Counted from the first letter of the stretch, positions 4,148 to 36,076 are shown. The stretch: DNA of 43,265 bases from Candidatus Woesearchaeota archaeon (GCA_964372815.1 CAYJSG010000002.1:1-43265), one strand, 5' to 3'. The notes: generated from the sequence alone by a model not told the origin. Made by a program: numbers and translations.

Positions 4148-4177
4148 ATGAAAGGAGAAAAAGAGCGTAAATTATGA
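4148..4177 (+). other. Candidate 9-codon upstream ORF (MKGEKERKL) whose stop overlaps the main ATG (ATGA)
   Basis: ATG at 4148 and TGA at 4175-4177, overlapping the ATG at 4174-4176. It sits at the spacing from the TATA box that other genes in the window use for their start codon. Confidence 0.25.
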
Positions 4178-6210
4178 AAGCAATTATTCTCGCGGGAGGG
4201 TTAAGTTCAGGATTAAAATCAGGCGCAGGAGATGTCTCAAGACCAATGGCAATGATCGCGGGTCAGCCATTTCTCGAGCATCAAATCAGGTCTCTTAGAG
4301 ACTTCGGAATAAAAGAGATTATTTTAGCCGTCTATAATACAGCCAACACAATAAAATCCTATTTTGGAAATGGTTTGAGATTGGCAGTAGATATAACCTA
4401 TTCTGAAGAAGACTTTCCTCTGGGAACCGCAGGAGCAATTAAAAAGGCAGAGAAATATATTGACGACACTTTCCTAGTATTAAATGGAGACTCGTATTCA
4501 AACGTAGATATTAATGAATTAATAGAATTCCATAATTCAAAAAGAAGTAATTTCACTCTATCTCTAACAAAAATATTAGACACCTCTCGTTATGGAAATG
4601 TGATCTTGAAAGAAAACAAGATTATAGAATTCTTAGAAAAAACAGAATCACCAAATCCCAATGCACTTATAAACAGCGGAGTTTATGTTTTTGAACCAAA
4701 AATATTTGATTATATAGAACCAGAAAAGAACATTTCTTTAGAAAAAGAGATATTTCCCAGATTAGCAAAAGAAAATCTTCTATTCGGATACATTTACAAT
4801 GGTTACTTTAGAGACATAGGGCAACCAGAAACTTATCAAAAATTCAAGGAAGATGTTATTAATACTCTTCAACTTAAAGAGATACATAAAGTAAGAGATG
4901 CAATGAACAAAATAACAAAGAGTGGAATAAATATCGTCTTGGTTACAAACGAGGATAAAAAACTTCTTGGAGTTGTTAATGATAGAATAATGAAAGAATA
5001 CATGCTTAGAGGAGGAAATCTGGACGACACTTTAAGCAAGGCAATGATTCGAGATCCAATAATCGCAAAAGAGTCAGAAGGAAAAGACAGAATTTCAGAA
5101 CTATTAATGGCAGGGATAAATCATCTGCCAGTTGTAGACGACTTTAGAAGAATAAAGGACGTTGAATTTAGAGTAGAAAAGCTAAAAACAGAAACTTTTC
5201 CAGTAATCAGAGGAAGAGCACCTTTAAGAATAAGTTTTGCTGGTGGAGGTACAGATATTCAAAATTTCTTTGAAAAATACGGAGGAGTTGTCATAAATGC
5301 TACAATAGACAAATATTGTCATGCCACTCTAATTAAAAGAGCGGACTCAAAAATAATAATAAACTCAGATTTAGGAGAAGATCTAATAATAGATTCAAGA
5401 AGCGATTTACATTATGACGGTAGATTTGATTTAATCAAATCAGTTATAAATATTCTCAAGCCTGATTTCGGTTTTGAATTATATCTTCATAATGATTTAC
5501 CTCCAGGTAGGGGCCTAGGTTCTTCAGCTTCTTTATCCACCCTAATAATAAGCCTCTTAAGCTACTTGCAGGATGCACATTACGACGATTATAAAATTGC
5601 TGAATTAGCTTATAAAGTAGAAAGAGAAGAGCTAAAAATAAAAGGGGGTTGGCAGGATCAGTATGCAGCAGTAACAGGAGGATTTAATTTTATGGAATTT
5701 AATGGAGAAAAAAAAATTATTTATCCCTTAAAATTAAAAGAAGAAGTTATAAACGAATTAAATCATCATATGCTTCTTTGTTATGTAGGAAAATCTCATA
5801 ATTCAGGAGACATTCACAAAAGTCAAGAAAGATCCTTTGAACAAAATGAATCATTAGTTGCTAATTACAAAGAATTAAAAAAAATAGCTATCGAAATAAA
5901 AGACGCTCTTTTGACAAACCAGATAGAAAAAATAGGAACTCTTTTAAATGAAGCCTGGGAAAATAAAAGAAAGTTAGAATCGTCAATTTCAGATCAAATT
6001 ATAGATACTATTTACACGATAGGCTTAAAAAACGGTGCTCATGGAGGAAAATTACTTGGAGCAGGTGGTGGAGGCTATATTTTGTTTTTCTATTCTCCAA
6101 AAAAAAGAAACCAGCTTACAAAAGCATTAGAAAAATCAGGAGGTCAGATAATGAATTTTAACTTTGAGTTTAAAGGAATTCAATTATGGCCTGCAAAACA
6201 AAAAGCCTAG
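4174..6210 (+). CDS. Fusion protein: sugar-1-P nucleotidyltransferase + CBS pair + GHMP sugar kinase (HddA/fucokinase-like)
   Basis: N-terminus ILAGGLSSG...PFLEH (NTP_transferase). Central tandem CBS-like repeats (about residues 236-335). C-terminus PLRISFAGGGTD and PPGRGLGSSASL (GHMP motifs), plus GAGGGGY. Confidence 0.85.
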   Translation: MKAIILAGGLSSGLKSGAGDVSRPMAMIAGQPFLEHQIRSLRDFGIKEIILAVYNTANTIKSYFGNGLRLAVDITYSEEDFPLGTAGAIKKAEKYIDDTFLVLNGDSYSNVDINELIEFHNSKRSNFTLSLTKILDTSRYGNVILKENKIIEFLEKTESPNPNALINSGVYVFEPKIFDYIEPEKNISLEKEIFPRLAKENLLFGYIYNGYFRDIGQPETYQKFKEDVINTLQLKEIHKVRDAMNKITKSGINIVLVTNEDKKLLGVVNDRIMKEYMLRGGNLDDTLSKAMIRDPIIAKESEGKDRISELLMAGINHLPVVDDFRRIKDVEFRVEKLKTETFPVIRGRAPLRISFAGGGTDIQNFFEKYGGVVINATIDKYCHATLIKRADSKIIINSDLGEDLIIDSRSDLHYDGRFDLIKSVINILKPDFGFELYLHNDLPPGRGLGSSASLSTLIISLLSYLQDAHYDDYKIAELAYKVEREELKIKGGWQDQYAAVTGGFNFMEFNGEKKIIYPLKLKEEVINELNHHMLLCYVGKSHNSGDIHKSQERSFEQNESLVANYKELKKIAIEIKDALLTNQIEKIGTLLNEAWENKRKLESSISDQIIDTIYTIGLKNGAHGGKLLGAGGGGYILFFYSPKKRNQLTKALEKSGGQIMNFNFEFKGIQLWPAKQKA

Positions 6211-6298
6211 AAAGCGATAAATCAACTATTCTCATAGAAATACCAGATCTGTATAATATCGAGTAACTTAAAAATTAATGTTTTTAATTACACAAATA

Positions 6299-6306
6299 CT
6301 TTTAAA
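6299..6306 (+). promoter_or_regulatory. TATA-like box for CDS 6328..7212
   Basis: CTTTTAAA about 28 nt upstream of the ATG at 6328. No SD. Confidence 0.5.
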
Positions 6307-6327
6307 CCATATCTTCATTCTCTTACA

Positions 6328-7212
6328 ATGGATTATGAATCAGAGTTAGAATTTACAATAGAAACGGCACGATTAGCAGGCAATTTATTAATGGAGAATT
6401 TTGGAGGACAACATAGTCCACAATGGACTTCTGAAACAAAAGAAACCAATTTTAAAATAGCAATGGACAAAAAAAGTGATAATTTAATAAGAACAGCTAT
6501 AAAGCAAAGTTTCCCAGAAGACGATATTTATTCAGAAGAAGCAGAGGATGTAGACAGAGGCAGGGAAAGAAAATGGGTTTTCGATCCAATAGACGGAACA
6601 GAACCGTATGCTAACCATACAAGTAATAATTGGAGTGTAGCTATAGCATTAATCAAAGATAAAACTCCTGTTCTTGGAGTTGTTTATATGCCACAAAGAG
6701 GAGAACTCTATCGCGCGGTTACAGGTAATGGTGCTTATTGCAATAATATTCCTATCAGAGTTTCACAAGAATCTAGCATCAACAAAGTACGTATGGGTGT
6801 TGATGGTGGTAAGAAGATAGATGGCTGGTTCGATGCAAATTCCCTTAGTATATTAAAAAATAGACTTGAGCCAAATATTGCAATCCTTCTAGGTTTTGCT
6901 TGCGCTTCTGTTCCATTATGTCAGGTTGCGAGCGGCTTCCCTGATTCAAGACTGCCAAGAGTAGGAAGATTAGAGGCCTATCTCGGTGGAGCTTTAGAGC
7001 CATGGGATATGGCAGCAGAAGTTCCAATAATCAGAGAAGTAGGCGGAAAGGTTACACATCTATCAGGAAAAGAATGGCAGTTTAGTAAATATAAACAAGG
7101 TGATCCTACAATTCTTGCTGCAAATCCAGTTCTACACCAAAAGTTAATAGATTATCTTTCGGCGGAGATAGATCTTTATTACACCAAAAACGGGTTTGCA
7201 ATTTACAAATAA
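6328..7212 (+). CDS. Inositol monophosphatase family phosphatase (paralog 2)
   Basis: Motifs WVFDPIDGTEPY and EPWDMAAE. 294 aa. Confidence 0.85.
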   Translation: MDYESELEFTIETARLAGNLLMENFGGQHSPQWTSETKETNFKIAMDKKSDNLIRTAIKQSFPEDDIYSEEAEDVDRGRERKWVFDPIDGTEPYANHTSNNWSVAIALIKDKTPVLGVVYMPQRGELYRAVTGNGAYCNNIPIRVSQESSINKVRMGVDGGKKIDGWFDANSLSILKNRLEPNIAILLGFACASVPLCQVASGFPDSRLPRVGRLEAYLGGALEPWDMAAEVPIIREVGGKVTHLSGKEWQFSKYKQGDPTILAANPVLHQKLIDYLSAEIDLYYTKNGFAIYK

Positions 7213-7300
7213 TTGAGGACATTGCAGAAATCGTAACCAGCGTCGTAGAACCAAGATGATCAGAATAAGAATTTAGCTCCCGAATTATCTTTCTTAGCAA

Positions 7301-7480
7301 CTAATTTATCATTTGCGTAAATATATGTTTCATTAAGAATTGTGCCATTTGTATAACAAACATGAATGAAGTTATCAGATATACTATTAAGACCACTGCG
7401 CTAGCATTGATTATTGTTACTAATTGATTAAATCCGTTATATGAATAATTCCTACCAAAGCCTTTAAAGAAATACTTAAA
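7301..7480 (-). pseudogene. Possible YD/RHS-repeat gene fragment (3' piece)
   Basis: The minus frame reads KGFGRNYSYNGFNQLVTI, a YD-repeat-like motif, with no credible start. The rest of the 224-aa ORF is low-complexity antisense of the TA genes. Confidence 0.3.
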
Positions 7481-7514
7481 AAAGTTTATATATTTCCAAT
7501 TAAGTTTTATATTT

Positions 7515-7748
7515 ATGAGCGAAATAACTATTTCCATACCTGAAGAATTAGAGGAAGATATAAGAAGACTATCAAAAATAAAACTTTCATTAGCTATTGC
7601 TAAGATGATAAAACCAGAACTGGAAAAATCAGCAAGACTTAAGTCTATTATTTCTAAATCTAAATTAATAGAAGAAGATGTTAAAGAACTCTCAAATGAA
7701 ACAGATAAGGCATTATCTGAAAGATTCAGAAAATCTGTAAAAGAATAA
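7515..7748 (+). CDS. VapB-like antitoxin (archaeal PIN-associated family)
   Basis: 77 aa, reading MSEITISIPEELEEDIRRL...SKSKLIEEDVKELS. It lies immediately upstream of a PIN-type start (MFIVVDSNI). Confidence 0.6.
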   Translation: MSEITISIPEELEEDIRRLSKIKLSLAIAKMIKPELEKSARLKSIISKSKLIEEDVKELSNETDKALSERFRKSVKE

Positions 7749-7754
7749 TTTAAA

Positions 7755-8059
7755 ATGTTTATTGTTGTTGATAGTAATATCAAAGGGGAAAACCTTATAA
7801 AATTGAATATATTAGAATTAATAGAGAAAATGGAAGAGATAAAAGTAAAAATTCCAGAAACATTGAGAGAAGATAGAAGGAAAATTGAGAGAGAGGTAGC
7901 AGAGCTTATTTCTTCTGAAGAGAAGATAAAACTATTATCTGTTTTTTTAGATAATGCAATGAAGGGGCTAATCAAATAAGGGATGAAGAATTAGTTGAAT
8001 TTGGAAGAAAGATTAAGAAAGGAAGATTTAATGAGCTGAAAAAAAATAGGATTAATTAA
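7755..8059 (+). pseudogene. PIN N-terminal stub (25 codons) fused in frame to a second, frameshifted antitoxin copy
   Basis: MFIVVDSNI... runs into MEEIKVKIPETLREDRRKIE at 7830, which parallels the first antitoxin. The C-terminal part DEELVEFGRKIKKGRFNELKK continues in another frame from 7982 to the stop at 8057-8059. Confidence 0.5.
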
Positions 8060-8380
8060 ATGAGGCTAACAATTGATACTAATGAATTATTTTCTTTTTT
8101 CAATGAAAAATCAAAAGTTAGAGAATTATCACTTCTTCCTGAATTAGAACTTAGAGAATTATCACTTCTTCCTGAATTAGAACTATATGCGCCCTCATAT
8201 GCATTATAAGAAATTGGAAAATATAGGAGAGACGTTATAAAGAAATTTAATTTATCTAACTTTCAATTTGACACAATTGAGAATTTTTTGCATATTATTA
8301 TTAAATTTATTGATGCAGATGAATATGAAGAGAACTTCGCAGAAGCAAAGAAACTCTCTCCTGATCCAGATTTTACTTAA
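8060..8380 (+). pseudogene. PIN-domain (VapC-like) toxin pseudogene
   Basis: MRLTIDTNELFSFF start, an in-frame 11-codon tandem duplication, and an in-frame TAA at 8207-8209. The frame then continues (EIGKYRRDVIKKF...AKKLSPDPDFT) and ends prematurely at 8378-8380. Confidence 0.6.
8120..8185. repeat. Perfectly in-frame 33-bp tandem duplication (2 copies, 32/33 identical)
   Basis: 8120-8152 agagaattatcacttcttcctgaattagaactt; 8153-8185 is the same sequence with a final a. It encodes RELSLLPELEL twice. Confidence 0.95.
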
Positions 8381-8572
8381 CTGATTAAAACTATCATATT
8401 CATAGTATTTACTAAATCCTTTAATGAGATTGCCGTTATTATCATAGGTTAGATTTGTGTTGTAAGTGACGATTAAAATTGGAGTTGATGATTCAGAAGA
8501 ATATTCTAGGTAGCGTTCGGCTTCTTCATAATTATCTTCCCCATCTATTATTAGAACAAAGATAGAATTAAT
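8381..8572 (-). pseudogene. Possible YD/RHS-repeat gene fragment (5' piece)
   Basis: The minus frame reads IIDGEDNYEEAERYLEYSSESSTPILIVTYNTNLTYDNNGNLIKGFSKYYEYDSFNQL. It has no start codon and abuts the PIN pseudogene. Confidence 0.35.
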
Positions 8573-8645
8573 TTATCGTTAGGAAATAATAATCAGACAC
8601 CACAAATTTAGTAAGTTGTACAAGGTAATTATAAGATTCATAACA

Positions 8646-8655
8646 CTTATAAATG
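8646..8655 (+). promoter_or_regulatory. TATA-like box for CDS 8675..9802
   Basis: CTTATAAATG about 28 nt upstream of the ATG at 8675. No SD. Confidence 0.5.
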
Positions 8656-8674
8656 ATTTATCATTTCTTAAAAA

Positions 8675-9802
8675 ATGAGAATACAATTCGGAGAATTAAA
8701 GATTGGTGAAACAGCAAAAAAGCATTTGCAAGATGTAATAAATACAAATTGGGCATCTGGAGGCCCTAAAGTCAAACTCTTTGAAGAACAGTGGAGCAAA
8801 TTATTTGGCTACAAATATAGCGTTGCTATGAGCTCTGGCACAGACGCTGACATAAATGCCTGCGCAGCGCTCTATGACTTCGGTGCAAATAGAGGAGATG
8901 AAATTATAGTTCCAGCCTTATCTTTTATAGCAACCTCAAATGCAGTTTTAGCCGCCGGCCTTAAACCAGTGTTTGTAGATATAGAAAGACACACATTAAA
9001 TATCAATCCAAAAAAAATCGAGGATAAGATAACAAAAAAAACAAAAGCAATTATGGTTGTCCATACAATGGGCAAACCATGCGATATGGACAAAATAAAT
9101 GAAATTGCAAAAAAGAATAATTTATTTATTATTGAAGATTCGTGTGAGTCGCATGGAGCAAAATACAAGGGAAAATTTGTAGGTCATTTAGGTGACATGG
9201 CAGCATTTAGTTTCTATGCAGCACATTTAATATGTTGTGGCGAAGGAGGCATGGTCTCAACAAACAATGAAAAATTAGCAGAAATCCTGCAATCAATAAG
9301 AAGTCACGGTAGAAAACCTGGAACATTATATTTTGACCATATTCGTTTCGGTATAAATTCCAAGATGAATGATATGGAAGCCTCTCTTGGATTACAGGGA
9401 GTAGAAGAATTTTGGGCTACTTTCAATAAAAGAAAAGAAAACTTATATTATTTATTAAACAAATTAGAAGATTTAGAAAAATTTGCTTTCTTTAATATAG
9501 AAGAAGAGCATGAAGTAGTCACTCCTCATGCTTTCACTATAACATTAAAAGACTCAAAATACAATTGCTCTGAACTATACTCCTTCTTGGAATCCAATGG
9601 AGTCATGTGCAAAAGAAATTTTGGTTCAATACCAACACAACATAAAGCGTTTGCTTTTATGGGACATAAATTTGGAGAATTTCCAGAATCAGAATATGTT
9701 GGAAATAATGGTTTACATTTTGGAATCCATCAATATCTAACAAGAGAAGATTTAGACTATATTTCAGACTTGGTTCATAAATATTTTGCTAAATTTAATT
9801 AA
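8675..9802 (+). CDS. DegT/DnrJ/EryC1/StrS-family PLP sugar aminotransferase
   Basis: 375 aa with SSGTDA, IVPALSFIATSNAV and EDSCESHGA, the family's layout with a conserved active-site region. Confidence 0.88.
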   Translation: MRIQFGELKIGETAKKHLQDVINTNWASGGPKVKLFEEQWSKLFGYKYSVAMSSGTDADINACAALYDFGANRGDEIIVPALSFIATSNAVLAAGLKPVFVDIERHTLNINPKKIEDKITKKTKAIMVVHTMGKPCDMDKINEIAKKNNLFIIEDSCESHGAKYKGKFVGHLGDMAAFSFYAAHLICCGEGGMVSTNNEKLAEILQSIRSHGRKPGTLYFDHIRFGINSKMNDMEASLGLQGVEEFWATFNKRKENLYYLLNKLEDLEKFAFFNIEEEHEVVTPHAFTITLKDSKYNCSELYSFLESNGVMCKRNFGSIPTQHKAFAFMGHKFGEFPESEYVGNNGLHFGIHQYLTREDLDYISDLVHKYFAKFN

Positions 9803-9803
9803 T

Positions 9804-10661
9804 ATGCCACTAAAAAGCTCTCTTCTGGTTGGAGAAATACACCCACAAGCATTATCTCTATTAAAGAAAAATACAATCTTAACAAAAAAAACTCAAGATG
9901 AATTTGATAAAATATCTTTATCAGAAGAATATGAAATTTTAATAATTAGAACATTTACAAAAATATCAGAGAAAGAATTAAATAAACTTCCAAATCTAAA
10001 ATATATAGTAAGTTGTAGCGTAGGAATAGACAACATAAATTTAGAAGAATTAAAGAAGAGAGATATATCTTTAATTTATTGCCCAGGCACTAATGCCAAT
10101 AGCGTAGCAGAACACACTCTTTATCTTATACTTTCTCTTCTAAGAGAAAGCACCCCGCAATTTATAGAATTAAAAAACAAAACCATGGGAATAATAGGAT
10201 TTGGAAACATAGGAAAATTAGTTGCAAGAAAGTTATCTGGTTTTGAGGTTAAAATAATTGCTCATGATATAATAGAACAAAATAAAGACATATTAAAGGA
10301 ATTAAAAGTAGAAATCAAAGATTTAGATTATCTTGTAAAAAATTCAGATATCGTAACAATTCACGTTAATTTAAATGAACATACAAAATCTATGATAAAC
10401 GAAACAATATTTTCAAAAATGAAGGACAATATTTTCTTAATAAATACATCAAGAGCAGAAATTATAGACGAAATATCTTTAATGAAACACAACAACTTAG
10501 GAAAATTTAAAGGCATAGCCCTAGACGTCTATTCAGAATATCTAGAAAAAAACCTTAAAGGAAATATAATTTTAACACCACATGTAGCTTCACAAGGACA
10601 AGACTCATTCAGAGAAATGTGTACAAAGCCAATAAGCGAACTATTAAAAATTATGGGTTAA
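9804..10661 (+). CDS. D-isomer-specific 2-hydroxyacid dehydrogenase family protein
   Basis: NAD fold GIIGFGNIGKLVARKL, then INTSRAEIID, ALDVY and TPHVAS. ATG at 9804 is preferred over the TTG at 9786. Confidence 0.85.
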   Translation: MPLKSSLLVGEIHPQALSLLKKNTILTKKTQDEFDKISLSEEYEILIIRTFTKISEKELNKLPNLKYIVSCSVGIDNINLEELKKRDISLIYCPGTNANSVAEHTLYLILSLLRESTPQFIELKNKTMGIIGFGNIGKLVARKLSGFEVKIIAHDIIEQNKDILKELKVEIKDLDYLVKNSDIVTIHVNLNEHTKSMINETIFSKMKDNIFLINTSRAEIIDEISLMKHNNLGKFKGIALDVYSEYLEKNLKGNIILTPHVASQGQDSFREMCTKPISELLKIMG

Positions 10662-11333
10662 ATTTATTCCAGATATATATTTAGAGCTCTTAATCAGTCT
10701 AAAAGGGAATTCTTGCATTATTTTATCAGCAATATCACCATGTTCAAAATTATATTTAATCTCCAGAATAAATGTCTCTTTATCTTCTATAGGCTTAATA
10801 AACAAATTATTTCTTTCTCTAGTCTCAAAAAACTTTAATTCATTGTCTAAGGTAATCCTAAATTTATTATCGGTAGAAATATAATATCTTCTCTTATAAG
10901 AGTTTATCAAACTAATCTTGGTTAACATTATTATTTCTTTAATATAATCTGAAATATTAGATTCAATTATTACATTTTTTATATGCTCCTCTGAAAAATT
11001 TCTCTTTACTGAAAATTCATTTAATTCAAACTTCAATTTCTTTCCCAATTCACCTTCTTTTATCTTAAATTCCAATATTCCATTTTTAATAAGTCCAAAC
11101 ATATTCCCATACCATCTAATTCTAATTTTCAATCTGGAACTGTTTCCGGAAATATTATCATGATAGTTATCCATATTAAAAGAATCTAGATATATATTAT
11201 TAACCTGCCTGGGAGAATATATCTCCTTAAATAGGCCGGAATTTAATTTAATAACATGTTCAATTTCTTTTAAATCCAGCTTATGAATAACAAATTTTCT
11301 TTCATTTCTTAATTTTAAGTCTTTATTCTCCAT
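10644..11333 (-). CDS. VTC-domain (CYTH-like, polyphosphate-polymerase-type tunnel domain) protein
   Basis: ERKFVI..., YLDSFNMDNY..., RLKIRIRWYG..., LEFKIKEGELGKK. ATG at 11333 (MENKDLK) is preferred over 11378. Confidence 0.75.
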   Translation of the reverse strand: MENKDLKLRNERKFVIHKLDLKEIEHVIKLNSGLFKEIYSPRQVNNIYLDSFNMDNYHDNISGNSSRLKIRIRWYGNMFGLIKNGILEFKIKEGELGKKLKFELNEFSVKRNFSEEHIKNVIIESNISDYIKEIIMLTKISLINSYKRRYYISTDNKFRITLDNELKFFETRERNNLFIKPIEDKETFILEIKYNFEHGDIADKIMQEFPFRLIKSSKYISGINLTHNF

Positions 11334-11340
11334 ATTAATC

Positions 11341-14124
11341 TCAGCCAGGATATAATTTATCAAAAACATTATTTCCACTATTCAAAATAATCTTTTTATT
11401 TATTAATGCATCTGAACCTTTTTCAATTAAATAATCATTTTTAGCATTAATCTCAGCATTAACAGCCTCGATCGAGGCAGGTCCAAATTCAGGTTTCTTT
11501 TGATAAGCAGTCAAACCATATTCACAATTCTTTATCTTAATATCATTCACATTTAATTTAGAAAGATCCTTGCTTGTCGCTCCTATATAACAATTTTTTA
11601 TTTTAAATCCATTAACCCCTATATCACTTTCTTCTCCTGCGCTTATTCCCTTATCACCTATTTCACTAGCTTCAACATAGTTTATAATTGCTCTGCTTCC
11701 AGAAAAATCCAGAGCATCATTTCTACAATTTGTAAATATTGTATTTTCTACACTCCCCTTACCAAAATCAACATCAAAACAATCAGACAAAGCCCCATCA
11801 AATAGACTATTTTTAATTTCAAATTCAGATTTTACAATGTTCAGGCTATCTTCAGCTCTAGCATTTAAAAATTGTACATTATTCATTTTAACATCAGATT
11901 CATAAAATGTAACTGCCCCTGTTAATTCCCATCCATTCTTAGACGGAAAAGATAAATCATCAAATATAACATTGTTTAATTCAGATCTCTCATTTGCGCC
12001 AATTACAACAATACCCTGGCCCTGCCCATCAGAAGAGAGTAATCTGATAGGACTTTCCAAACTACCATAAAATCTTAATGGAGAATATGACAATATTGCC
12101 GAATTGTTTATCAAATCCAAGTTAGTCCCGCTACTAGCATAAACTAAAAATCCCTCGGGGATAATTAAACTTTTATCTAATTTCCAGTTACCTGCTTTTA
12201 TTGTTATTTTCTTATCTTTATTATCAACAATTAAAAATTCATTATCTAAAACAGGTTTCTGCCTTATAAAATCAGTTTCAATAAAGTTATCATCTCTATA
12301 GCTCCATGGCAACACAGTTACATTTCTTAAAGAATTTGCTCCAAACACCTTATAATTAACTTGGAGTTCGCTAATAATAGTATTATTAAATTCGAAACCT
12401 TTTGGAATTGAAAAACCAACCTTTTTGTAATCAACTACTCCAGAAGAAGCCCTCGGCTGCAATATTAATTTTTCATTTAGATAAAACTTTATGCCTTTAT
12501 ATTCCAGCTCTAGAATATCAATAGGCAAATAATCCAGATTTCCAACATCTAAAATTAGCTCACCATTATCTTCTTTATCAAAATAAGCTAAAATCGTCCT
12601 TCTATCTGGATTTAAAATATCTCTTATATATTGCTGATTTTCATAAAATATATTTTTAGAGAAGTGATAATAAGGCATATCTTTGTGTATAATTTCTATC
12701 TTCTCTTTTATCTCATTATCAAGTTCGTTAAACAATCCATCTAAATATTCTTTCTTAGAAACCCGTTCTAGTTCACTGATATACTTTTCAAAAAATACAG
12801 GATCGCTAAATAACAAGTTATAATAATTATTTATTTTTTCTTCACACTCTCTTTCATTAAATTTTATACATCTTGGAAAATATTTATGAATTATTTTATA
12901 ATTATCTGTCCCACTATTTCCATTAAATCCAATTGGCTCTAATTTTGAGGTTATAGGATTGTAATAGAGCCTTATATTAATCCAATCAGCCGCATGTTCT
13001 GCTCCAATTAAACTTACAATTGCAAAATATTTTGCAAGTTTTTCTACATCAAAAACTTCATGTGTTTTTAATTTTCCTAATCTAAATGCTTCAAATAAAT
13101 TTCTAGCTTTATTAAATTGTGTATACTGAATATTATCTTCTAAAACAGCCCCAGTCTTAAACAAATCTACAGAGCTATCATGAAAACCAGTATCGAGGAA
13201 ATAACTATAAGAGATTAGATAATCTTTATCAAAAGTTATATTTTTATTTCCTACATTAAACTCAGTGACAAGTTCATCATCACGCATCTCTCTTACAATA
13301 AAATTCTTCCCTTCTTTTTGTACCAAATCTTTATACCAGTCATCCTCATAAAATTTTATTATCACCCCTTCTCTTCTTTCATTATCCTCTATAAGATACT
13401 TATCAAAATGCTCTTCTATCCCATAAATTCCCTTGTTTTTACCATTTATTTCAACTTCTATAAAATCATATCTTAAGCCAATAACACCCTCTTTTTTTAA
13501 TGCCTTATGGAATATATACTCATTCAAATACTGCCTTATTCTAGGATGATGTATAGAAAAAGTCTTCATGCCAAATAAAGTATTATCTCCATTCAGATCT
13601 ATTTTCATAGACCATTTTTCTCCTTCTAAATTTTCAGGGGCATCACCTTTTAATCTTACTTTGGCCTTATATTCTTTATTCATATATCTTATACTTGCAG
13701 GAACAAAATCATCTCCTGAATAAAAAATAAATTTATCATTAAAAACCTGTTCTCTTTTATAAACTAATTTTTGATAATCTTTAAATTTAATATCAATATA
13801 TATTTTTTCTGGATTTGAGAATTGTCCGAAAATATAATTAAAAGGTATCTTAATATTCTCTTTTAGAACACCAATCAACACACTCTTTAATCCAGATTCA
13901 AAGCCAAGACTTCTTAAAAATTCCCTCCCTTTTTGAGAGGGCTCATCAAGTGTTCCAAAAAATCCAGAGAAAATTAAGCCGCTAAAATATCCAATTAAAA
14001 AAAAACCTATAAATATAGTTATAATCAATATTACTCTAATCTTTTTCTTTAATATAAATTTAGATATCGACAAGAATAATTTCTTTAGTCTGGATTCAGA
14101 AGCAGAATTTAATTTCAATTTCAT
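11341..14124 (-). CDS. CotH-family kinase-like protein with N-terminal membrane anchor and C-terminal parallel beta-helix repeats
   Basis: TM segment IRVILIITIFIGFFLIGYFSGLIF. CotH-like core KVRLKGDAPENLEGEKWSMKIDL...VEINGKNKGIYGIEEHFD. C-terminal beta-helix repeats (NVQFLNARAEDSLNIV...DALDFSGS). Confidence 0.8.
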   Translation of the reverse strand: MKLKLNSASESRLKKLFLSISKFILKKKIRVILIITIFIGFFLIGYFSGLIFSGFFGTLDEPSQKGREFLRSLGFESGLKSVLIGVLKENIKIPFNYIFGQFSNPEKIYIDIKFKDYQKLVYKREQVFNDKFIFYSGDDFVPASIRYMNKEYKAKVRLKGDAPENLEGEKWSMKIDLNGDNTLFGMKTFSIHHPRIRQYLNEYIFHKALKKEGVIGLRYDFIEVEINGKNKGIYGIEEHFDKYLIEDNERREGVIIKFYEDDWYKDLVQKEGKNFIVREMRDDELVTEFNVGNKNITFDKDYLISYSYFLDTGFHDSSVDLFKTGAVLEDNIQYTQFNKARNLFEAFRLGKLKTHEVFDVEKLAKYFAIVSLIGAEHAADWINIRLYYNPITSKLEPIGFNGNSGTDNYKIIHKYFPRCIKFNERECEEKINNYYNLLFSDPVFFEKYISELERVSKKEYLDGLFNELDNEIKEKIEIIHKDMPYYHFSKNIFYENQQYIRDILNPDRRTILAYFDKEDNGELILDVGNLDYLPIDILELEYKGIKFYLNEKLILQPRASSGVVDYKKVGFSIPKGFEFNNTIISELQVNYKVFGANSLRNVTVLPWSYRDDNFIETDFIRQKPVLDNEFLIVDNKDKKITIKAGNWKLDKSLIIPEGFLVYASSGTNLDLINNSAILSYSPLRFYGSLESPIRLLSSDGQGQGIVVIGANERSELNNVIFDDLSFPSKNGWELTGAVTFYESDVKMNNVQFLNARAEDSLNIVKSEFEIKNSLFDGALSDCFDVDFGKGSVENTIFTNCRNDALDFSGSRAIINYVEASEIGDKGISAGEESDIGVNGFKIKNCYIGATSKDLSKLNVNDIKIKNCEYGLTAYQKKPEFGPASIEAVNAEINAKNDYLIEKGSDALINKKIILNSGNNVFDKLYPG

Positions 14125-14125
14125 C

Positions 14126-14818
14126 TTATTGATAGATGCCTATTTTATCAAGATAACTTATCGCAATTGAACTTGAGATTTTATTTAGCTCTTCCTTTAT
14201 TATATCTAATTTCTCAAAAGAATCAAGGTCAACAAGGAAAGCAGCTTCAAGCATCCCATCAATAGATTTATCAAATCTTTTCAAATGTACAGAAGAACAG
14301 TTTTTCTTTAAAATATCAACAATCTTTTTTAAAGTAAGATCCTTATTTATCTTTCCGGAAATTGTTAAATACAAATTTTGATCTTCCTCTTTTCTATAAT
14401 AAAAATGTCTGCTCCACAAAAACAAAGATAGAATAAAGACCGCAATCAAAGTAATTAAAATCTGATTTGCCCCCAAACTTAATCCGGCAGATATAGAAAT
14501 GAAGAGAAATGCCAGCTCTTCTGGCTCTTTTATAGCTGTTCTGAATCTAACAATTGATAATGCTCCAACTAAACCTAATGATAAAGCCAGAGAAGATTTG
14601 ACCACACTAATAATCAATGTAGTTGTTGGTATTAGAAGATAAAAATTATTAGCAAATTTTTTCCTATTAGAAATAGCACTTCCATATTTAACATATACTC
14701 TGCTCAAAACAAAAGCTAAAATCAAAGAAAGGATCATTGCTAGTATAAATTGAGAAATATCTATCTGGGCAGGATTATTCAATAAAAAATCTTGGAAAGT
14801 TATATTAGTAATAGCCAT
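14126..14818 (-). CDS. DUF4956-type multi-pass membrane protein
   Basis: Several TM helices and the family hallmark GALSIVRFRTAIKEPEELAFLF. The stop is 1 nt from the CotH start. Confidence 0.75.
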   Translation of the reverse strand: MAITNITFQDFLLNNPAQIDISQFILAMILSLILAFVLSRVYVKYGSAISNRKKFANNFYLLIPTTTLIISVVKSSLALSLGLVGALSIVRFRTAIKEPEELAFLFISISAGLSLGANQILITLIAVFILSLFLWSRHFYYRKEEDQNLYLTISGKINKDLTLKKIVDILKKNCSSVHLKRFDKSIDGMLEAAFLVDLDSFEKLDIIKEELNKISSSIAISYLDKIGIYQ

Positions 14819-14856
14819 ATTGATTTAAGAATGCAACAAATTCTCATTTATAAAAC

Positions 14857-16428
14857 TTATGTAGAAAAACTAGATATTCTCCCAATTTTTAACTTATTTT
14901 TAATAGTTAGCAATATAATTTTATCATTGCTGTCTAAACCGCCAGAAATTAAAATCAGAAAGATATATAATAAAATAAAGAAACAACTCAATATTAAAAA
15001 ACTTACAATATTTATGGCAAAAAATTGCTTAACATAAATCAATATAATAGTGCAAATTATTCCCATCAAAAATATTTTAATCATACTTCTTCTTGCAGGA
15101 ATCATATTAAAATTTTTTCTAACTTCAAAAATTAACAAAGCGCTTGTAATTAATATAGAGAATAATGTAGCTAGAGCAGCCCCATTTATTCCCAACTTAT
15201 TTTCAATAAACCAGATTTTTTCCATAGGAACAAAGATGTAATTTAATATTATATTTAAGATAATAGATAAACTAGTGTTAAATAATATCAATTTAGATCT
15301 GCCTTTCATTAAAAGCAGATGGTATGATATAGTCGGGACAATTGTAGTAACAAATAAACCTATAGCTAAAATTCTCAAAGAGTTTCCAGCGGCAACATAT
15401 TGCTCTCCAAATAATATCCTTATTATTATATCAGGAAATATAAAGATAAGGATAAATAATGGAAGATTTATAACAAATATCCATTTGACAACCTGTCTGC
15501 TTAATTCTTTAATCAGATGATATTTCTTTTCAGAATATATTTTTGTAATCAATGGAAAGAATAATTGCATAAATAATTCAGGAACAAAATGAAGCAGTGC
15601 AGCAATAGGCACCGCAGAAGCGTATAAACCTACCTCGACAGCAGTTTTATAATAACCTATAAAAAAAGAATCTAACCATGTTAATGCGACTTGCATAATT
15701 CCAACAAATACAACAGGCCATGAATAAGACAAAATATCTTTAGCTATTTTTATTTCCTTTCCCTCTTTTAAATTTTTATCAAAAATCTCTGGTGTTTTTT
15801 TCCTGCAGATTATAAAAACAAATATCAACATTAATAATAAACCTAACGCATGGGATAAAGGTACAGAAATACTTTCAAAACCTAAAATAATCAAAATAAC
15901 TAAAACAATTACTTTAGCGAAATTTCTAATAAAATTAGTTATAAAAGAATATTCTCTTATCTTTTCATAAGACCTCAATACAGAAAGTAGGACATTAGAA
16001 AAAGCAGTTAATGGAATCCCAATGCTCAATATTTTAATAAATAAGATAAGTTTCTCATTATGAAATATGTTAAGAGCAATAAATTCAGAAATAAAGTACA
16101 AAATAATCCCAAATATTATACTAGAAACTAAAATAAATCTTGATGTAAAATCATAAGAGTATTTTATCTTCTCCATTTCTTTTTTCCCTCTGAAAATTGA
16201 TATATATCTTAAAATGCCCTCAGGCAACCCAAAGGATGCAAAAGCAATAAAAAATCCTAAGATCATTATTCCCAAAGAATATAAGCCGTAAACCTCCGGC
16301 CCAAAATGCCTTGCGATTATTACTCTATAAACATAGGTAAACAATTTTGATAATCCAACGCCGAATAAGACTATAAAAGAAGATTTTACAATCAATCTGA
16401 GATTTTTATTAAGCTCGCTATTCTCCAT
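14857..16428 (-). CDS. Wzx-like oligosaccharide flippase (MOP/polysaccharide biosynthesis protein family)
   Basis: 523 aa with about 12-14 hydrophobic helices. The N-terminus LIVKSSFIVLFGVGLSKLFTYVYRVIIARHFGPEVYGLY is typical for the family. Confidence 0.8.
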   Translation of the reverse strand: MENSELNKNLRLIVKSSFIVLFGVGLSKLFTYVYRVIIARHFGPEVYGLYSLGIMILGFFIAFASFGLPEGILRYISIFRGKKEMEKIKYSYDFTSRFILVSSIIFGIILYFISEFIALNIFHNEKLILFIKILSIGIPLTAFSNVLLSVLRSYEKIREYSFITNFIRNFAKVIVLVILIILGFESISVPLSHALGLLLMLIFVFIICRKKTPEIFDKNLKEGKEIKIAKDILSYSWPVVFVGIMQVALTWLDSFFIGYYKTAVEVGLYASAVPIAALLHFVPELFMQLFFPLITKIYSEKKYHLIKELSRQVVKWIFVINLPLFILIFIFPDIIIRILFGEQYVAAGNSLRILAIGLFVTTIVPTISYHLLLMKGRSKLILFNTSLSIILNIILNYIFVPMEKIWFIENKLGINGAALATLFSILITSALLIFEVRKNFNMIPARRSMIKIFLMGIICTIILIYVKQFFAINIVSFLILSCFFILLYIFLILISGGLDSNDKIILLTIKNKLKIGRISSFST

Positions 16429-16592: not shown

Positions 16593-17168
16593 TCATCCTA
16601 CAAACCTTACAACCTCTAAATATAATTTTTCAAGACTTTTATCACTATTAATTTCAATCATCTTACAAAAATCTCTTATTTTGTAAAAATTAGTGTAATA
16701 ATTGTTTAGCTTTATAAAAGAAAAAGTATAACCTCTATTTCTCAAAACTTTTGGAGAAACTCTTAAAATAAGGCATAAGTCTGGTCTAGGCGTTATTAAT
16801 TTAAAAAACTTATATTTTAATCCTCTGGAAAAGACCAACTCATCATAAAAATATCTGTCAAACAGTATAAAATCAACATTATAAAATAAACTTTTCACAT
16901 ATCTAATCATTAATTCAGAATAATATATAAAATAAAAAATCCAGCTTCTCTCCCTATATCGGTCTATCCTATTTTCCTTTACTTTTTTACTTTTTTTCAT
17001 ATATAATTTAGAAAAAAGTCTTAAAATGGGATTAGAAAAATCTCTCCAACCCATAAAAATTATCTTCACACTCTTTTTCTCTATTTTAAACCTTTTCTTT
17101 ATATAATCAATCAAAGTACTCTTGCCTGTTCCATCTATCCCGATAAAACAAATTTTAATTTTTTTCAT
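16593..17168 (-). CDS. P-loop kinase, thymidylate-kinase-like fold
   Basis: Walker A FIGIDGTGKSTL and FDRYFYDE. ATG at 17168 (MKKIKICF) is preferred. Overlaps the methyltransferase stop by 14 nt. Confidence 0.6.
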   Translation of the reverse strand: MKKIKICFIGIDGTGKSTLIDYIKKRFKIEKKSVKIIFMGWRDFSNPILRLFSKLYMKKSKKVKENRIDRYRERSWIFYFIYYSELMIRYVKSLFYNVDFILFDRYFYDELVFSRGLKYKFFKLITPRPDLCLILRVSPKVLRNRGYTFSFIKLNNYYTNFYKIRDFCKMIEINSDKSLEKLYLEVVRFVG

Positions 17169-17922
17169 TTTTTTCAAATTTAACAAGATAGCTGGAAGCA
17201 AAAATCTTTGACAATAAACTCCACCTTTTTTTATAAAGCTTGTTAAATAATAATCTATTGGGAACAAGAGGAAAATCACTAAACAATATAGGGTAAACTT
17301 CTACTCTGATAAAACCTGCTCTTATTAAAAGATTGGCTAAATCTTCAACAAATATCCTGTTTTTATGTTCAATATCAATTTTTCTTCTGAATAATTTCTT
17401 TAAGGTAACTAATTTTGGATGTGGAGGCGAGCTAATAATGATTCCTTTTCCATCATTCTTTAAAATATTATAAAATTTTCTTATCACTTCAGATTTATTT
17501 GGTATATATTCTATCGCTCTTGAACAAAAAATAAAATCAAAACTCTCTTTTTTTAGTTTTACATCTAAAAAATTACTGACTATAGTTTTTACTCTCTTTC
17601 TCTCTCCTACATTCTTCTCAAACTGTTTTATCATCTCTTTTGAAATATCAACGCACAAAAAGTTAGCCCCAGGGTATTTTTTTAGCAATATTTTAGTCCA
17701 TGTCCCAGGCCCACAACCAACCTCAAGACAATTTTTAATCTCTATATCTTCTAAGTGAAATAACAAACTTCTCAAGCTATATTCATATTGTCTTATTTTC
17801 CTAGGACTGCTAAACCATCTCACATATTCATATCCACTGTCAGAAATATTCTTTGCTTTTCTATTATAAAATTCTCTAATCCAATTTCCAAATTCAATAT
17901 CTTTTTTTCTAATATTTTCCAT
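17155..17922 (-). CDS. Class I SAM-dependent methyltransferase
   Basis: Motif I LEVGCGPGTWT. 255 aa. Confidence 0.85.
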   Translation of the reverse strand: MENIRKKDIEFGNWIREFYNRKAKNISDSGYEYVRWFSSPRKIRQYEYSLRSLLFHLEDIEIKNCLEVGCGPGTWTKILLKKYPGANFLCVDISKEMIKQFEKNVGERKRVKTIVSNFLDVKLKKESFDFIFCSRAIEYIPNKSEVIRKFYNILKNDGKGIIISSPPHPKLVTLKKLFRRKIDIEHKNRIFVEDLANLLIRAGFIRVEVYPILFSDFPLVPNRLLFNKLYKKRWSLLSKIFASSYLVKFEKNEKN

Positions 17923-18157: not shown

Positions 18158-18817
18158 ATGTCTTTAATAAAAGAAATAAAAAGTTTTAGAAAAGGCCCTG
18201 AAAAATCAGGTTATGCATTGTATTATACTTATAGGCAAGTTTCCCCTTTCTTCTCTGCTCTATTTATTAAATTGAGATTTTCTCCCAATTTCATAACTTT
18301 TCTATCTATACTTTCAGATTTTTTAGTAGTTTATTTAATGTATTTACAAAACTGGATTTTAGCAGGAATTCTGGTTAATTTAGCAATGATTTTAGATTGT
18401 TCAGATGGTGAACTAGCAAGATATTACAAATCTAAGGAAAAAAGTCCAAAAGAAACACATTACGGTTCTTATTTAGATGAAGTTTTAGGAACAATTGGTT
18501 TTACATTAGTAGTATTTTTTGCAGGCTATTTTATGAATCAGCCGGCAATAGGATTATTTGCAATGTTTGGCTTATTCATGTTAATTGTAACTTCATTAAC
18601 AGCAGAAAAGGAATTTCCAAATAAGAAAGAAATTGCAAAGAAGTTTGAAGAATCTCTATTCGGAAATCTAAAAGGCAGAATAGGCTTTCCATGTGCAGCC
18701 CAGAGAATTCTAGTCAGTATAGCAGTTCTCTTTTCGAGCCATATTATTCTTCTAATCTTTGGTATTATCTGTCATCTCTTTTATCTTCTTAAGTTTTTAG
18801 TTTATAGAAAATATTAA
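18158..18817 (+). CDS. CDP-alcohol phosphatidyltransferase family membrane protein
   Basis: LDCSDGELAR (DxxDGxxAR) embedded in a multi-TM protein. The distal GxxxDxxxD part looks non-canonical (GSYLDEVLG). Confidence 0.75.
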   Translation: MSLIKEIKSFRKGPEKSGYALYYTYRQVSPFFSALFIKLRFSPNFITFLSILSDFLVVYLMYLQNWILAGILVNLAMILDCSDGELARYYKSKEKSPKETHYGSYLDEVLGTIGFTLVVFFAGYFMNQPAIGLFAMFGLFMLIVTSLTAEKEFPNKKEIAKKFEESLFGNLKGRIGFPCAAQRILVSIAVLFSSHIILLIFGIICHLFYLLKFLVYRKY

Positions 18818-18864: not shown

Positions 18865-19401
18865 CTAAGATGAAGATCCAAAAACTATTTTCCTTGTAAT
18901 ATCAATTAGGTCTCTGCATTTTTGAGTGAGGTCATTAATTTTTTCTTCATTCATAGATATTTTCACACTATAAGTATAATCTTCTCTCATCTCTATAACA
19001 CTCTCTTCTTTTTTCATTTCATCCTCTTGGTATTTAAAAATATCAATAAATTCTTGGTCAATGTTTGTTTTACCTTCTTCTTTAAGATACTCGATCAATA
19101 CAATAGTACATGTTTGATTTGCTGATTCATATCCAAATTTCACAGCAATTGCTAGAAAACAATGATACATTGAATAGAAAAATGCACTTGCAGACCAATC
19201 TGAAAATCCGGTTTTTACAAAATTAAGAGCGGCATCAAGATTATGTTCTGCTTTTACAATATGATTCTTTGCTTCATTTTTATCTGGACTTATTTTCAAA
19301 AGACCTCGATGTTTTGGTCTTTTTCCTTCTTTTTTACATTCCTCAATCTCTTTCTCTGCTTTCTTTAAACACCACGCAACATGCTTAGATGCTTGTGACA
19401 T
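18865..19401 (-). CDS. HEPN-domain protein (toxin partner of the MNT)
   Basis: Helical protein. The ATG at 19401 overlaps the MNT stop by 17 nt. KAEHNLDAALNF...FFYSMYHCFLAIAVKFGYES layout resembles HEPN. A canonical Rx4-6H motif is not evident. Confidence 0.6.
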   Translation of the reverse strand: MSQASKHVAWCLKKAEKEIEECKKEGKRPKHRGLLKISPDKNEAKNHIVKAEHNLDAALNFVKTGFSDWSASAFFYSMYHCFLAIAVKFGYESANQTCTIVLIEYLKEEGKTNIDQEFIDIFKYQEDEMKKEESVIEMREDYTYSVKISMNEEKINDLTQKCRDLIDITRKIVFGSSS

Positions 19402-25043: not shown

Positions 25044-25045
25044 AA

Positions 25046-36062: not shown

Positions 36063-36076
36063 CACAAATAAAAGAA

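Follow-up and report, generated by a model that had tools for sequence, protein, structure and literature searches.

The synthesis of polyphosphate in prokaryotes is ascribed to PPK1, PPK2 and, recently, PPK3, VTC-type polymerases being regarded as eukaryotic. What a VTC-domain protein does in an archaeon is the question raised by a stretch of 43,265 nucleotides (nt) from a Candidatus Woesearchaeota archaeon (GCA_964372815.1, CAYJSG010000002.1:1-43265), the whole of which is called the window here. Open reading frame (ORF) calls and Pfam searches define in it a co-directional minus-strand series of genes coding for a flippase (16428-14857), a DUF4956 membrane protein (14818-14126), a CotH-like protein (14124-11341), and the VTC-domain protein (11333-10644). 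The spacers in this series are 38, 1, and 7 nt long, the last two values assuming that the VTC gene starts at the ATG at 11333, in which case the gaps given in a preliminary description of the window, made from its sequence, are correct. That description read the triad as a split VTC machine that exports polyphosphate to the CotH-like protein, a model that is plausible, if unproven. The analysis reported here identifies the triad as a new, archaeal variant, Wzx-linked and with a fused beta-helix, of genes that had been described together in bacteria and whose function is unproven.

Association of the VTC, DUF4956 and CotH Families Across Genomes

A scan with the VTC profile, using one genome per species, recovered at least 585 relatives, and the best 80 loci were examined by searching their six-frame ORFs with hidden Markov models made for DUF4956 and CotH; the co-occurrence figures given below thus describe the subfamily closest to the query (best 80 loci per scan). 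DUF4956 is present in 71 and CotH in 53 of these 80 VTC-anchored loci. When the count is made on the 46 loci that have at least 5 kb on each side, the numbers are 45/46 (98%) for DUF4956 and 34/46 (74%) for CotH. The recurrent gene orders, with D, C, and V standing for DUF4956, CotH, and VTC, were D-C-V (20 loci), D-V (20), and C-D-V (14). In metagenome loci anchored on DUF4956, a VTC gene was found in all 34 that extend at least 4.5 kb downstream; in those with both flanks, VTC was found in 19/19 and CotH in 13/19 (68%). The adjacency of the three families is far beyond chance: VTC and DUF4956 form a near-obligate core pair (45/46 and 34/34, depending on the anchor) and the CotH-like gene is their frequent third member, with gene order conserved. 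The preliminary description had named the three families as frequent neighbors in bacteria.

The taxa represented among the VTC-anchored loci include Bacteroidota, DPANN, Methanosarcina, Methanogenium, KSB1, Omnitrophota, Planctomycetota, Verrucomicrobia, Gemmatimonadota, and Patescibacteria, besides others. When 127 ORFs drawn at random from the 4 kb around the module in the 80 genome loci were assigned to Pfam families, the list was headed by GT1, GT2, and GT4 glycosyltransferases, Polysacc_synt flippases, Polysacc_synt_2, epimerases, MBOAT, AlgX, and T9SS sorting domains. The triad of Methanosarcina sp. Mfa9 is bordered on one side by GT2, PIG-L, acetyltransferase, WbqC, FemAB, and polysaccharide-deacetylase genes and on the other by genes of beta-helix/dockerin and cohesin proteins. 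The context of glycan biosynthesis first noted in the window is thus found again in its DPANN relatives, in Methanosarcina, and in the neighbor census, and the module accompanies surface-glycan loci generally, in bacteria as well as archaea, without being restricted to Pel loci.

Three observations on these loci are recorded here. Synteny of the module beside Wzx flippases, MBOAT/AlgX, and other glycan genes recurs in many bacterial phyla and in archaea (loci L005-L166). The Nanoarchaeota single amplified genome AM-311-K23 (JBHPFW010000004.1; L001/L021) carries at 4631-14540 two divergent triads, D-C-V and C-V-D, arranged around one Polysacc_synt flippase gene. In Bacteroidales loci (L078 6584-7126, L073 6578-7120, and equivalents), a conserved lipoprotein of 181 amino acids (aa) with a lipobox LTGC/FTGC is encoded directly upstream of DUF4956-VTC; no Pfam family was found for it, and it may be another extracytoplasmic partner of the pair.

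The ensemble had been presented as one without assigned function, which is essentially right, although it is not undescribed. The genes cotH, ‘poly-phosphate polymerase’, DUF4956, and DUF4832 appear in Whitfield et al. 2020 (PMC7112168) as a set accessory to the pel operons of Gram-positive bacteria, for which the authors suggested regulation by a protein kinase. Deletion of the Streptococcus intermedius DUF4956-like gene SIR_1592 increases Pel and decreases aggregation, while deletion of SIR_1594, which encodes a secreted CotH-like protein, decreases both (PMC12345266). The authors of that work state that they did not find the three-gene synteny outside Pel loci, but it is seen in the window and in the Methanosarcina locus, and the taxonomic breadth and neighbor census of the 160 related loci examined contradict such a restriction as well. 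In a pathogenicity locus of C. perfringens, VTC and CotH genes adjoin a chitin-synthase-like glycosyltransferase gene and a membrane protein labeled ‘tubulin/FtsZ’ is encoded beside each VTC gene; the latter may be a mis-annotated DUF4956 protein. The window shares with the Gram-positive Pel accessory genes (PMC7112168; SIR_1594/1593/1592) the presence of the three families next to an exopolysaccharide locus, a CotH-like protein predicted to be extracytoplasmic, and a DUF4956-like protein predicted to have several transmembrane (TM) segments and an intracellular ACT domain. It differs from them in its host, a DPANN archaeon, and in its neighbor, a Wzx-type flippase in an island of nucleoside diphosphate (NDP)-sugar and phosphonate genes instead of pelDEADAFG. 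No DUF4832 or glycoside hydrolase partner was seen in the window, and in its CotH-like protein, which is anchored by a TM segment, a parallel beta-helix takes the place of the FN3 domain.

The VTC-Domain Protein Keeps Ten Tunnel Residues of Vtc4

The VTC gene (10644..11333, minus strand) codes for a triphosphate tunnel metalloenzyme-type (TTM) protein of 229 aa whose match to Pfam PF09359 (E 5.9e-27; 95.2 bits for a cut-off of 23) extends from residue 9 to residue 226 and spans profile positions 2-234 of 235. Its start is ambiguous, as the database call P0001 (241 aa) begins at 11369 and a GTG codon is found at 11378; both would overlap the 3′ end of the CotH gene. Neither a TM segment nor an SPX domain was found in the protein, and none of 48 family members (0/48) has a TM-like window, in agreement with its initial description as a soluble protein.

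The alignment of these 48 sequences has 31 invariant columns, among which are K13, R71, R73, E88, K90, K99, Y146, R148, R159, E191, S217, and K218. The family profile matches Vtc4 (3g3q; E 3.5e-6) and Vtc2. With the offset of the Vtc4 PDB-chain numbering fixed on the known R264/R266 pair, the window residues K13, R71, R73, K90, and K99 map to K200, R264, R266, K281, and K294 of Vtc4, and Y146, R148, R159, S217, and K218 map to Y359, R361, R373, S457, and K458. Apart from R264, R266, and E426, the Vtc4 residues used here are those that we take to line its tunnel. All ten mapped positions are invariant in the 48 homologues, where the preliminary description had named a tunnel devoid of catalytic residues as a sign against its own reading. 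For yeast VTC, the inactive form in standard use is the triple mutant R264A/R266A/E426N (PMC9911596). The invariant E191 (ILEIKY) lies in a strand that aligns to ‘ISNVKL’ of Vtc2, opposite the Asn of this inactive subunit, and is likely the counterpart of the metal-binding E426 of Vtc4; direct alignment to the E426 region of Vtc4 through a C-terminal sub-profile reached Vtc2 alone (E 0.47). Judged from these residues, the tunnel looks intact.

The resemblance to yeast VTC therefore includes the PF09359 domain (95 bits) and the ten tunnel residues, with a putative counterpart of the metal-binding Glu, and extends to the constant pairing of the catalytic domain with a small multi-helix membrane protein, which suggests synthesis at the membrane. 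Yeast VTC couples polyphosphate synthesis and translocation (PMC9911596). The differences are that the module enzyme stands alone as a soluble protein, free of SPX and of any fused membrane domain, that a Glu is kept by the prokaryotic proteins in the N-terminal R-x-E-x-K strand where Vtc4 has a Thr, and that the partner is DUF4956 (five helices and an ACT/PII-like domain), for which no similarity to the DUF202-type three-helix subunits was detected in sequence or fold. The target compartment of the module would also differ, being the cell exterior instead of the vacuole. VTC-type enzymes go unmentioned in a 2026 paper on how archaea make polyphosphate (PPK3).

The DUF4956 Membrane Protein

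The gene at 14126..14818 (minus strand) codes for a DUF4956 membrane protein of 230 aa (Pfam PF16316, E 2.4e-15, 57.1 bits for a cut-off of 30.6). In the AlphaFold2 model (predicted local distance difference test score, pLDDT, of 76.6), helices are formed by residues 21-45, 59-73, 76-94, 99-116, and 120-142, with the N-terminus predicted outside, and residues 147-229 form a cytoplasmic beta-alpha-beta-beta-alpha-beta domain of the ACT/PII-like type. The loop charges over 48 homologues obey the positive-inside rule, fitting this N-out/C-in topology. The most conserved stretch of the family is the core motif IVRFRTAIKEPEELAFLF (residues 89-106; 14501..14554, minus strand), singled out in the preliminary description as the hallmark of this multi-pass protein and nearly invariant in the alignment of 48 sequences. 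It is predicted to be a cytoplasm-facing loop between helices 3 and 4 bearing R91, R93, K97, E98, E100, and E101. The soluble VTC enzyme could dock on the invariant loop R91-F-R93-x-A-I-K97-E-P-E-E and on the ACT-like domain, both predicted to be on the cytoplasmic side.

A profile search of the whole protein library found 6072 DUF4956 representatives at E ≤ 1e-3, and 14 of the top 150 (~9%) are long proteins of 444-502 aa (P0389, P0393, P0398, P0401, P0402, P0407, P0409, P0428, P0432, P0442, P0446, P0453, P0455, and P0500). An N-terminal ConA-like 3keto-disac_hyd domain (PF06439), followed by a Pro/Glu-rich linker and then by DUF4956, was identified in eight of the ten long proteins tested, and a signal peptide is found at the start of all three sequences that were read. 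Because these fusions carry a signal peptide and a ConA-like domain, the DUF4956 N-terminus is placed outside the cell, and the ConA-like domain is a probable carbohydrate-binding domain on the outer face of the membrane. Fusions of VTC to DUF4956, which would be Rosetta-stone evidence, were sought among the long proteins and none was found, their additional N-termini being of the signal-peptide/ConA-like type and free of a VTC domain.

A Foldseek search with the DUF4956 model matched its C-terminal domain alone, to ACT domains and to the PII-like protein SbtB. The idea that DUF4956 is a VTC-like channel thus did not hold at the level of homology, and a relationship to the yeast channel was rejected since the PDB sequence search was empty and Foldseek gave no match for the membrane domain; the two may nevertheless be functional analogues. 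The protein also resembles MgtC/SapB/YhiD in having several TM helices followed by a cytoplasmic ACT-like domain, and some members are labeled YhiD/MgtC-like by JGI and in PMC12345266. Matches to MgtC (PF02308) are found in 20/48 family members and to ACT_4 in 6/48, but they are weak (best E for MgtC 0.0043) and no DUF4956 match to MgtC reaches the Pfam threshold. The window protein itself has no match to the MgtC/SapB/YhiD family, and when the DUF4956 profile was compared to E. coli YhiD with hhalign, the probability was 0.25%, with no supported alignment for the signature KSSLALSLGLVGALSIVRFRxAIKEPEE.

The CotH-Like/Beta-Helix Surface Protein

The central gene of the triad (11341..14124, minus strand) codes for a signal-anchored surface protein of 927 aa in which hydropathy, Pfam, and the fold model (AlphaFold2, pLDDT 87.4, predicted template modeling score 0.70) support the single N-terminal TM helix, CotH-like core, and C-terminal beta-helix originally described. 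Pfam CotH (PF08757) covers residues 157-505 (E 6.4e-7, 29.6 bits for a cut-off of 23.8) and Beta_helix (PF13229) covers residues 743-876 with a score under the gathering threshold (E 6e-4). More than 600 homologues are found at E ≤ 1e-5; the best 120, most of them near full length, come from DPANN, Methanosarcina, Methanogenium, Chloroflexota, KSB1, and Poribacteria. The TM anchor was located by hydropathy and charge count at about residues 29-55 (13960..14040, minus strand; helix 27-52 in the model). The 28-residue tail that precedes it has nine K/R and one D/E, and the anchor is found in 46/48 family members with a mean net charge of +3.9 before it. The protein is accordingly predicted to be N-in/C-out, as anticipated in the preliminary description, with its kinase-like domain among some 880 residues exposed outside the cell, where adenosine triphosphate (ATP) is not expected.

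The kinase-fold core (about residues 140-505; 12610..13707, minus strand) was recognized by profile, hhalign, and Foldseek comparison to B. cereus CotH 5jd9, with a profile E of 3.5e-5 and an hhalign probability of 86%; 5jd9 was also the best Foldseek match of the model (E 4.4e-12, TM-score 0.63 on the target). The catalytic residues were inspected taking as landmarks D228 and D251 of B. subtilis CotH, whose mutants D228Q and D251A are inactive (PMC7821199). The CotH-like family was aligned to BcCotH by two methods and the columns were counted in 59 module-linked CotH genes. The column of the catalytic Asp (BsCotH D228) has Ala in the window and G/S/A/P, never Asp, in the 59 genes, and the adjacent His377 is kept in 55 of them. 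N383, N389, and E396 are nearly invariant in the pocket region of the kinase fold. The Mg-binding D251-like column, placed at BcCotH D247 or D249 depending on the aligner, has Asp in 45, Glu in 8, and Asn in 3 of the 59 genes; it is Asn401 in the window, and Asn is also found in several close DPANN homologues. Compared to Bacillus CotH (PDB 5JD9/5JDA), the protein thus shares the atypical kinase fold together with K170, S172, N227-G228, G232, E238, N383, N389, and E396, and most of its relatives have the Asp at column 401 where the window has Asn. It differs in the replacement of BsCotH D228 by Gly/Ser/Ala with a His alongside and in being an extracytoplasmic, membrane-anchored protein, about 570 residues longer (beta-sandwich and beta-helix), with no sporulation context. 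The reading as an atypical kinase stands for the fold (5jd9) and falls for the canonical catalytic Asp and, in the window, for the Mg-binding Asp. As these residues are absent, the aligned sequences indicate that the domain does not qualify as an ordinary CotH kinase. The pattern fits an extracellular domain with a different donor or chemistry and fits equally a binding module.

Downstream of the core, an Ig-like beta-sandwich (about residues 511-603), defined by model secondary structure, precedes a right-handed parallel beta-helix (about residues 631-913; 11386..12234, minus strand), defined by model secondary structure and Foldseek. Acidic residues of the beta-helix occupy invariant alignment columns (D781, D784, D786, D803, D806, D824, E831, and D853), and the Foldseek matches that rank next after 5jd9 all fall on it and are polysaccharide-active enzymes: GH87 alpha-1,3-glucanase, phage tailspike depolymerases, GH28 polygalacturonases, AlgG epimerase, alginate lyase, and WceF.

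A Tentative Relay and Its Alternatives

The association, the conservation of tunnel residues, the folds, and the predicted topologies described above were obtained by computation; polymerase activity, translocation, and the chemistry of the CotH-like protein are what we infer from them. The reading that we favor, if only tentatively, is that the three proteins form a single conserved envelope module that would add phosphate chemistry to a surface glycan by a three-part relay from VTC to DUF4956 to the CotH-like protein. The soluble VTC-type tunnel enzyme would, as its conserved residues suggest, polymerize phosphate from a nucleoside triphosphate in the cytoplasm. Near-obligate adjacency and topology point to an enzyme that would work docked on DUF4956, whose loop RFRxAIKEPEE and ACT/PII-like domain are predicted to face the cytoplasm with the N-terminus outward, and which would pass polyphosphate or phosphoryl groups across the membrane or gate their passage. 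Outside the cell the anchored CotH-like/beta-helix protein, whose fold and topology are predicted, would hold flipped or polymerized glycan on its beta-helix, and its His-for-Asp kinase-fold domain might take the exported phospho-donor, not ATP, and phosphorylate the glycan or a surface protein or attach polyphosphate. A non-canonical donor chemistry fits because the catalytic-Asp column is never Asp in the 59 genes and has an adjacent His in 55 of them. The glycan-biosynthesis context, the likeness of the beta-helix to enzymes that cleave or modify glycans, the external N-terminus of DUF4956, and the changes in Pel level and aggregation when the DUF4956-like or the CotH-like gene of S. intermedius is deleted also speak for the relay. 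Its most specific form is rather unlikely: here the VTC polymerase threads or hands polyphosphate via DUF4956 to a His-containing CotH-fold ectoenzyme, which either takes the polymer as donor, perhaps with phospho-His as an intermediate, or grafts it onto glycans bound to the beta-helix.

In AlgI/AlgJ/AlgX O-acetylation and DltB/DltD D-alanylation, a cytoplasmic activated donor, a membrane component, and an outward transferase act on an exported polymer. The proposed module would follow the same three-part logic, as a ‘works like’ analogy alone, and MBOAT and AlgX genes are frequent neighbors of VTC-DUF4956 in Bacteroidota. The protein families are unrelated, however, and the proposed group is phosphate or polyphosphate.

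Several findings weigh against the relay. About a quarter to a third of the loci have no CotH gene within 7-8 kb. In the Foldseek search the DUF4956 membrane domain had no match to the Vtc1/Vtc4 channel or to any transporter, and few conserved basic residues (K74 only) are found inside the membrane part. The His-for-Asp interpretation relies on a remote alignment (16-23% identity) in which a shift of one residue would put the His at the Asp column, and with Asn at the Mg-binding position the CotH-like protein of the window could be catalytically impaired. The genetics of S. intermedius does not resemble a linear chain of donor supply, since deletion of the VTC gene SIR_1593 had no reported effect on aggregation or Pel (PMC12345266) and deletions of the DUF4956 and CotH genes have opposite effects on Pel. 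Our literature search found no enzymology for any prokaryotic VTC-domain protein and no polyphosphate-dependent CotH.

The D-V pair occurs alone in ~26-32% of full-flank loci, so that it can work without an adjacent CotH, and in Bacteroidales it is accompanied by a lipoprotein instead. These arrangements are accommodated by a scheme in which polyphosphate itself is the product: VTC and DUF4956 would be a prokaryotic membrane-associated polyphosphate synthase, yielding a polymer at or outside the membrane that serves as polyanionic matrix or cation store, or else a cytoplasmic store, and the CotH/beta-helix protein would make no use of it as donor, being a surface enzyme that binds or trims glycans or a pseudokinase merely found in the same envelope context. 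A beta-helix that by itself resembles autonomous glycanases, epimerases, and lyases suits this scheme, as does a CotH-like domain devoid of the canonical catalytic Asp and, in the window, of the Mg-binding Asp, which is compatible with a non-catalytic binding module. Yet the CotH gene lies between those of DUF4956 and VTC with spacers of 1 and 7 nt, in an order kept in at least 20 other loci, which argues for a shared complex or pathway, and the near invariance of H377, N383, N389, and E396 would be unusual for a dead domain; we consider this separation of product and ectoprotein improbable. Equally doubtful in our view is a regulatory role, although the match of the DUF4956 C-terminal domain to ligand-sensing ACT and PII-like SbtB folds speaks for it. 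A small signal rich in phosphate, be it tri- or tetraphosphate, a derivative of a nucleotide, or polyphosphate of short length, would be produced or degraded by the tunnel enzyme, as the CYTH/TTM superfamily is generally known to include cyclases and triphosphatases; the ACT/PII-like domain of an MgtC-like DUF4956 would sense it and tune the polysaccharide synthase or flippase, and the external CotH-like protein would feed back on the state of the polymer. The weak MgtC and ACT_4 matches among family members agree with this, and so does the separate annotation of SIR_1592 as an MgtC-type TM domain with an intracellular ACT domain (PMC12345266); the rise of Pel on deletion of SIR_1592 and its fall on deletion of SIR_1594 look more like modulation than like a biosynthetic step. 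The VTC match is nevertheless specific to PF09359 rather than to generic CYTH, with the ten aligned Vtc4 positions kept, the comparison to E. coli YhiD fails at 0.25% hhalign probability, and the module stands beside both Wzx- and synthase-dependent systems, so that a specific regulator would need to suit very different machines.

Kinase activity of the ordinary sort must also be weighed: Bacillus CotH is a protein kinase (PMC7821199), Foldseek confirms the CotH fold, and an ATP-dependent Ser/Thr protein kinase regulating polysaccharide biosynthesis proteins is the hypothesis put forward for the Pel-linked cotH (PMC7112168). The predicted topology places the entire kinase fold outside the membrane, where no ATP is expected, and the streptococcal homologue is predicted to be secreted as well; the equivalent of BsCotH D228 is absent in 59/59 module-linked genes, and fusion to a beta-helix resembling glycan enzymes points to a carbohydrate partner. 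An ATP-dependent kinase is therefore highly improbable here.

The Flippase Operon and the Surface-Glycan Island

The gene preceding the triad (14857..16428, minus strand) codes for a flippase of the Wzx/MOP family (523 aa), as first proposed, with Pfam matches to Polysacc_synt_3 (E 2.5e-25), Polysacc_synt, and MatE; its NCBIfam matches all lie under the cut-off, and the NCBIfam search assigned no family to the DUF4956, CotH-like, or VTC proteins. A flippase gene likewise adjoins the module in L004, L020, L002/L003, and L001. The spacer between the flippase and DUF4956 genes (14819..14856, minus strand) has the A/T-rich sequence TTTTATAAAT at 14846-14855. The octamer TTTATAAA within it (14847-14854), interpreted previously as a TATA-like box, is indeed present, but it occurs 13 times for 10.2 expected in the window of 30% GC content and it was rejected as a sign of an internal archaeal promoter because its count is not enriched; a promoter in this spacer is possible, the A/T-rich sequence being statistically indistinguishable from background.

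Upstream of the flippase, the same strand codes for a thymidylate-kinase-like P-loop protein (16593..17168; Thymidylate_kin, E 1.6e-7; likely start at M38 of the listed ORF) and, as first gene of the co-directional block, an S-adenosylmethionine-dependent methyltransferase (17155..17922; Methyltransf_11, E 1.1e-19). A CDP-alcohol phosphatidyltransferase gene (18158..18817, plus strand; CDP-OH_P_transf, E 8.6e-12) is divergent from the block. The whole arrangement, from the divergent phosphatidyltransferase through methyltransferase, dTMP-kinase-like, flippase, DUF4956, CotH-like, and VTC genes, is conserved in two other DPANN contigs (L004 and L020). The thymidylate-kinase-like gene occupies the same operon slot in the three contigs (window 16593-17168, minus strand; L004 2205-2780; L020 2192-2794). 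It could be tied to phosphate or polyphosphate chemistry, because dTMP-kinase-like proteins make up PPK3, the polyphosphate kinase of archaea (PMC12995831).

Of the 40 window ORFs that reach 100 aa, 39 were annotated with Pfam, and the result shows that the entire 43-kb window is a surface-glycan island with genes for NDP-sugar enzymes, two DegT aminotransferases, GT2, GT9, a carbamoyltransferase, CDP-alcohol and cytidylyl transferases, a phosphoenolpyruvate (PEP)-mutase/phosphonopyruvate-decarboxylase phosphonate pathway, and beta-helix and dockerin surface proteins; no polysaccharide deacetylase, DUF4832, or other Pel-type gene was found in this annotation, and Rfam and tRNA scans of the window found nothing. 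The phosphonate pathway lies within the island on the minus strand at 21034-24265, and also at 24519-25058. It consists of a PEP mutase that carries a fused cytidylyltransferase domain (22883-24265), a thiamine pyrophosphate-dependent phosphonopyruvate-decarboxylase-like enzyme (21759-22886), a nucleotidyltransferase (21034-21762), and another cytidylyltransferase, and suggests that surface glycans or lipids are decorated with phosphonate.

Large secreted beta-helix/NosD/LamG/Big_13 and dockerin proteins are encoded at 25115-27622 and 34344-36065 (minus strand). Dockerin and cohesin proteins also adjoin the triad of Methanosarcina sp. Mfa9 (L166 14046-18874), which hints at cohesin-dockerin surface assemblies near VTC-DUF4956-CotH modules. 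At the edge of the island, two genes of the inositol-monophosphatase family (3173-4051, minus strand; 6328-7212, plus strand) flank a fused nucleotidyltransferase-CBS-GHMP-kinase gene (4174-6210, plus strand), and this trio is an unusual sugar- or inositol-phosphate activation cassette. It is followed by 1.4 kb (7213-8674) without a long plus-strand ORF, in which small ORFs of 77, 74, and 49 aa are found. The 49-aa ORF has a start resembling the N-terminus of PIN domains (MRLTIDTNE...) and a perfect tandem duplication of 11 residues (RELSLLPELEL x2); this stretch is probably a decayed toxin-antitoxin remnant. The 224-aa ORF of the opposite strand (7301-7975, minus) is of low complexity and apparently spurious. 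Between the CDP-alcohol phosphatidyltransferase and phosphonate genes, a HEPN-domain gene overlaps an NTP_transf_2 nucleotidyltransferase gene (18865-19975, minus strand), likely a HEPN/MNT toxin-antitoxin pair.

Horizontal acquisition of the triad had also been proposed. The closest relatives of the three proteins are labeled Nanoarchaeota, Woesearchaeota, or Pacearchaeota, one DUF4956 protein being 96% identical, and the related contigs hold archaeal ribosomal, RNA-polymerase, and SecDF genes. At 0.26-0.29, the triad matches its flanks in GC content. A recent acquisition was therefore rejected, given the absence of a GC anomaly and the block conserved in the DPANN contigs L004 and L020. The mixed bacterial and archaeal distribution of the module implies instead old transfers.

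Significance of the Module

The picture of polyphosphate synthesis would change if prokaryotes had a conserved VTC-domain enzyme whose tunnel is intact and which has a membrane partner of its own. The module may also help to explain how the VTC machine of eukaryotes arose. Should the most specific form of the relay hold, polyphosphate would be made in bacteria and archaea, DPANN among them, by a third route next to PPK1/2/3, one that is homologous to that of eukaryotes. The pairing with an extracytoplasmic protein that combines a kinase fold and glycan binding offers a testable answer to the problem of working without external ATP. In that same specific form, kinase-type chemistry would take place outside the cell in the absence of ATP, by a way not recognized before, and the surface ‘phospho-glycans’ made in this way would be widespread. 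The DUF4956 family alone has thousands of representatives in Bacteroidota, Firmicutes, Chloroflexota, Planctomycetota, methanogens, and DPANN archaea. Because it influences the Pel-dependent aggregation of a streptococcal pathogen, the module is relevant for biofilm formation and virulence. In the archaeon studied here, as in the other hosts of the module, the triad probably adds phosphate chemistry to surface glycans.

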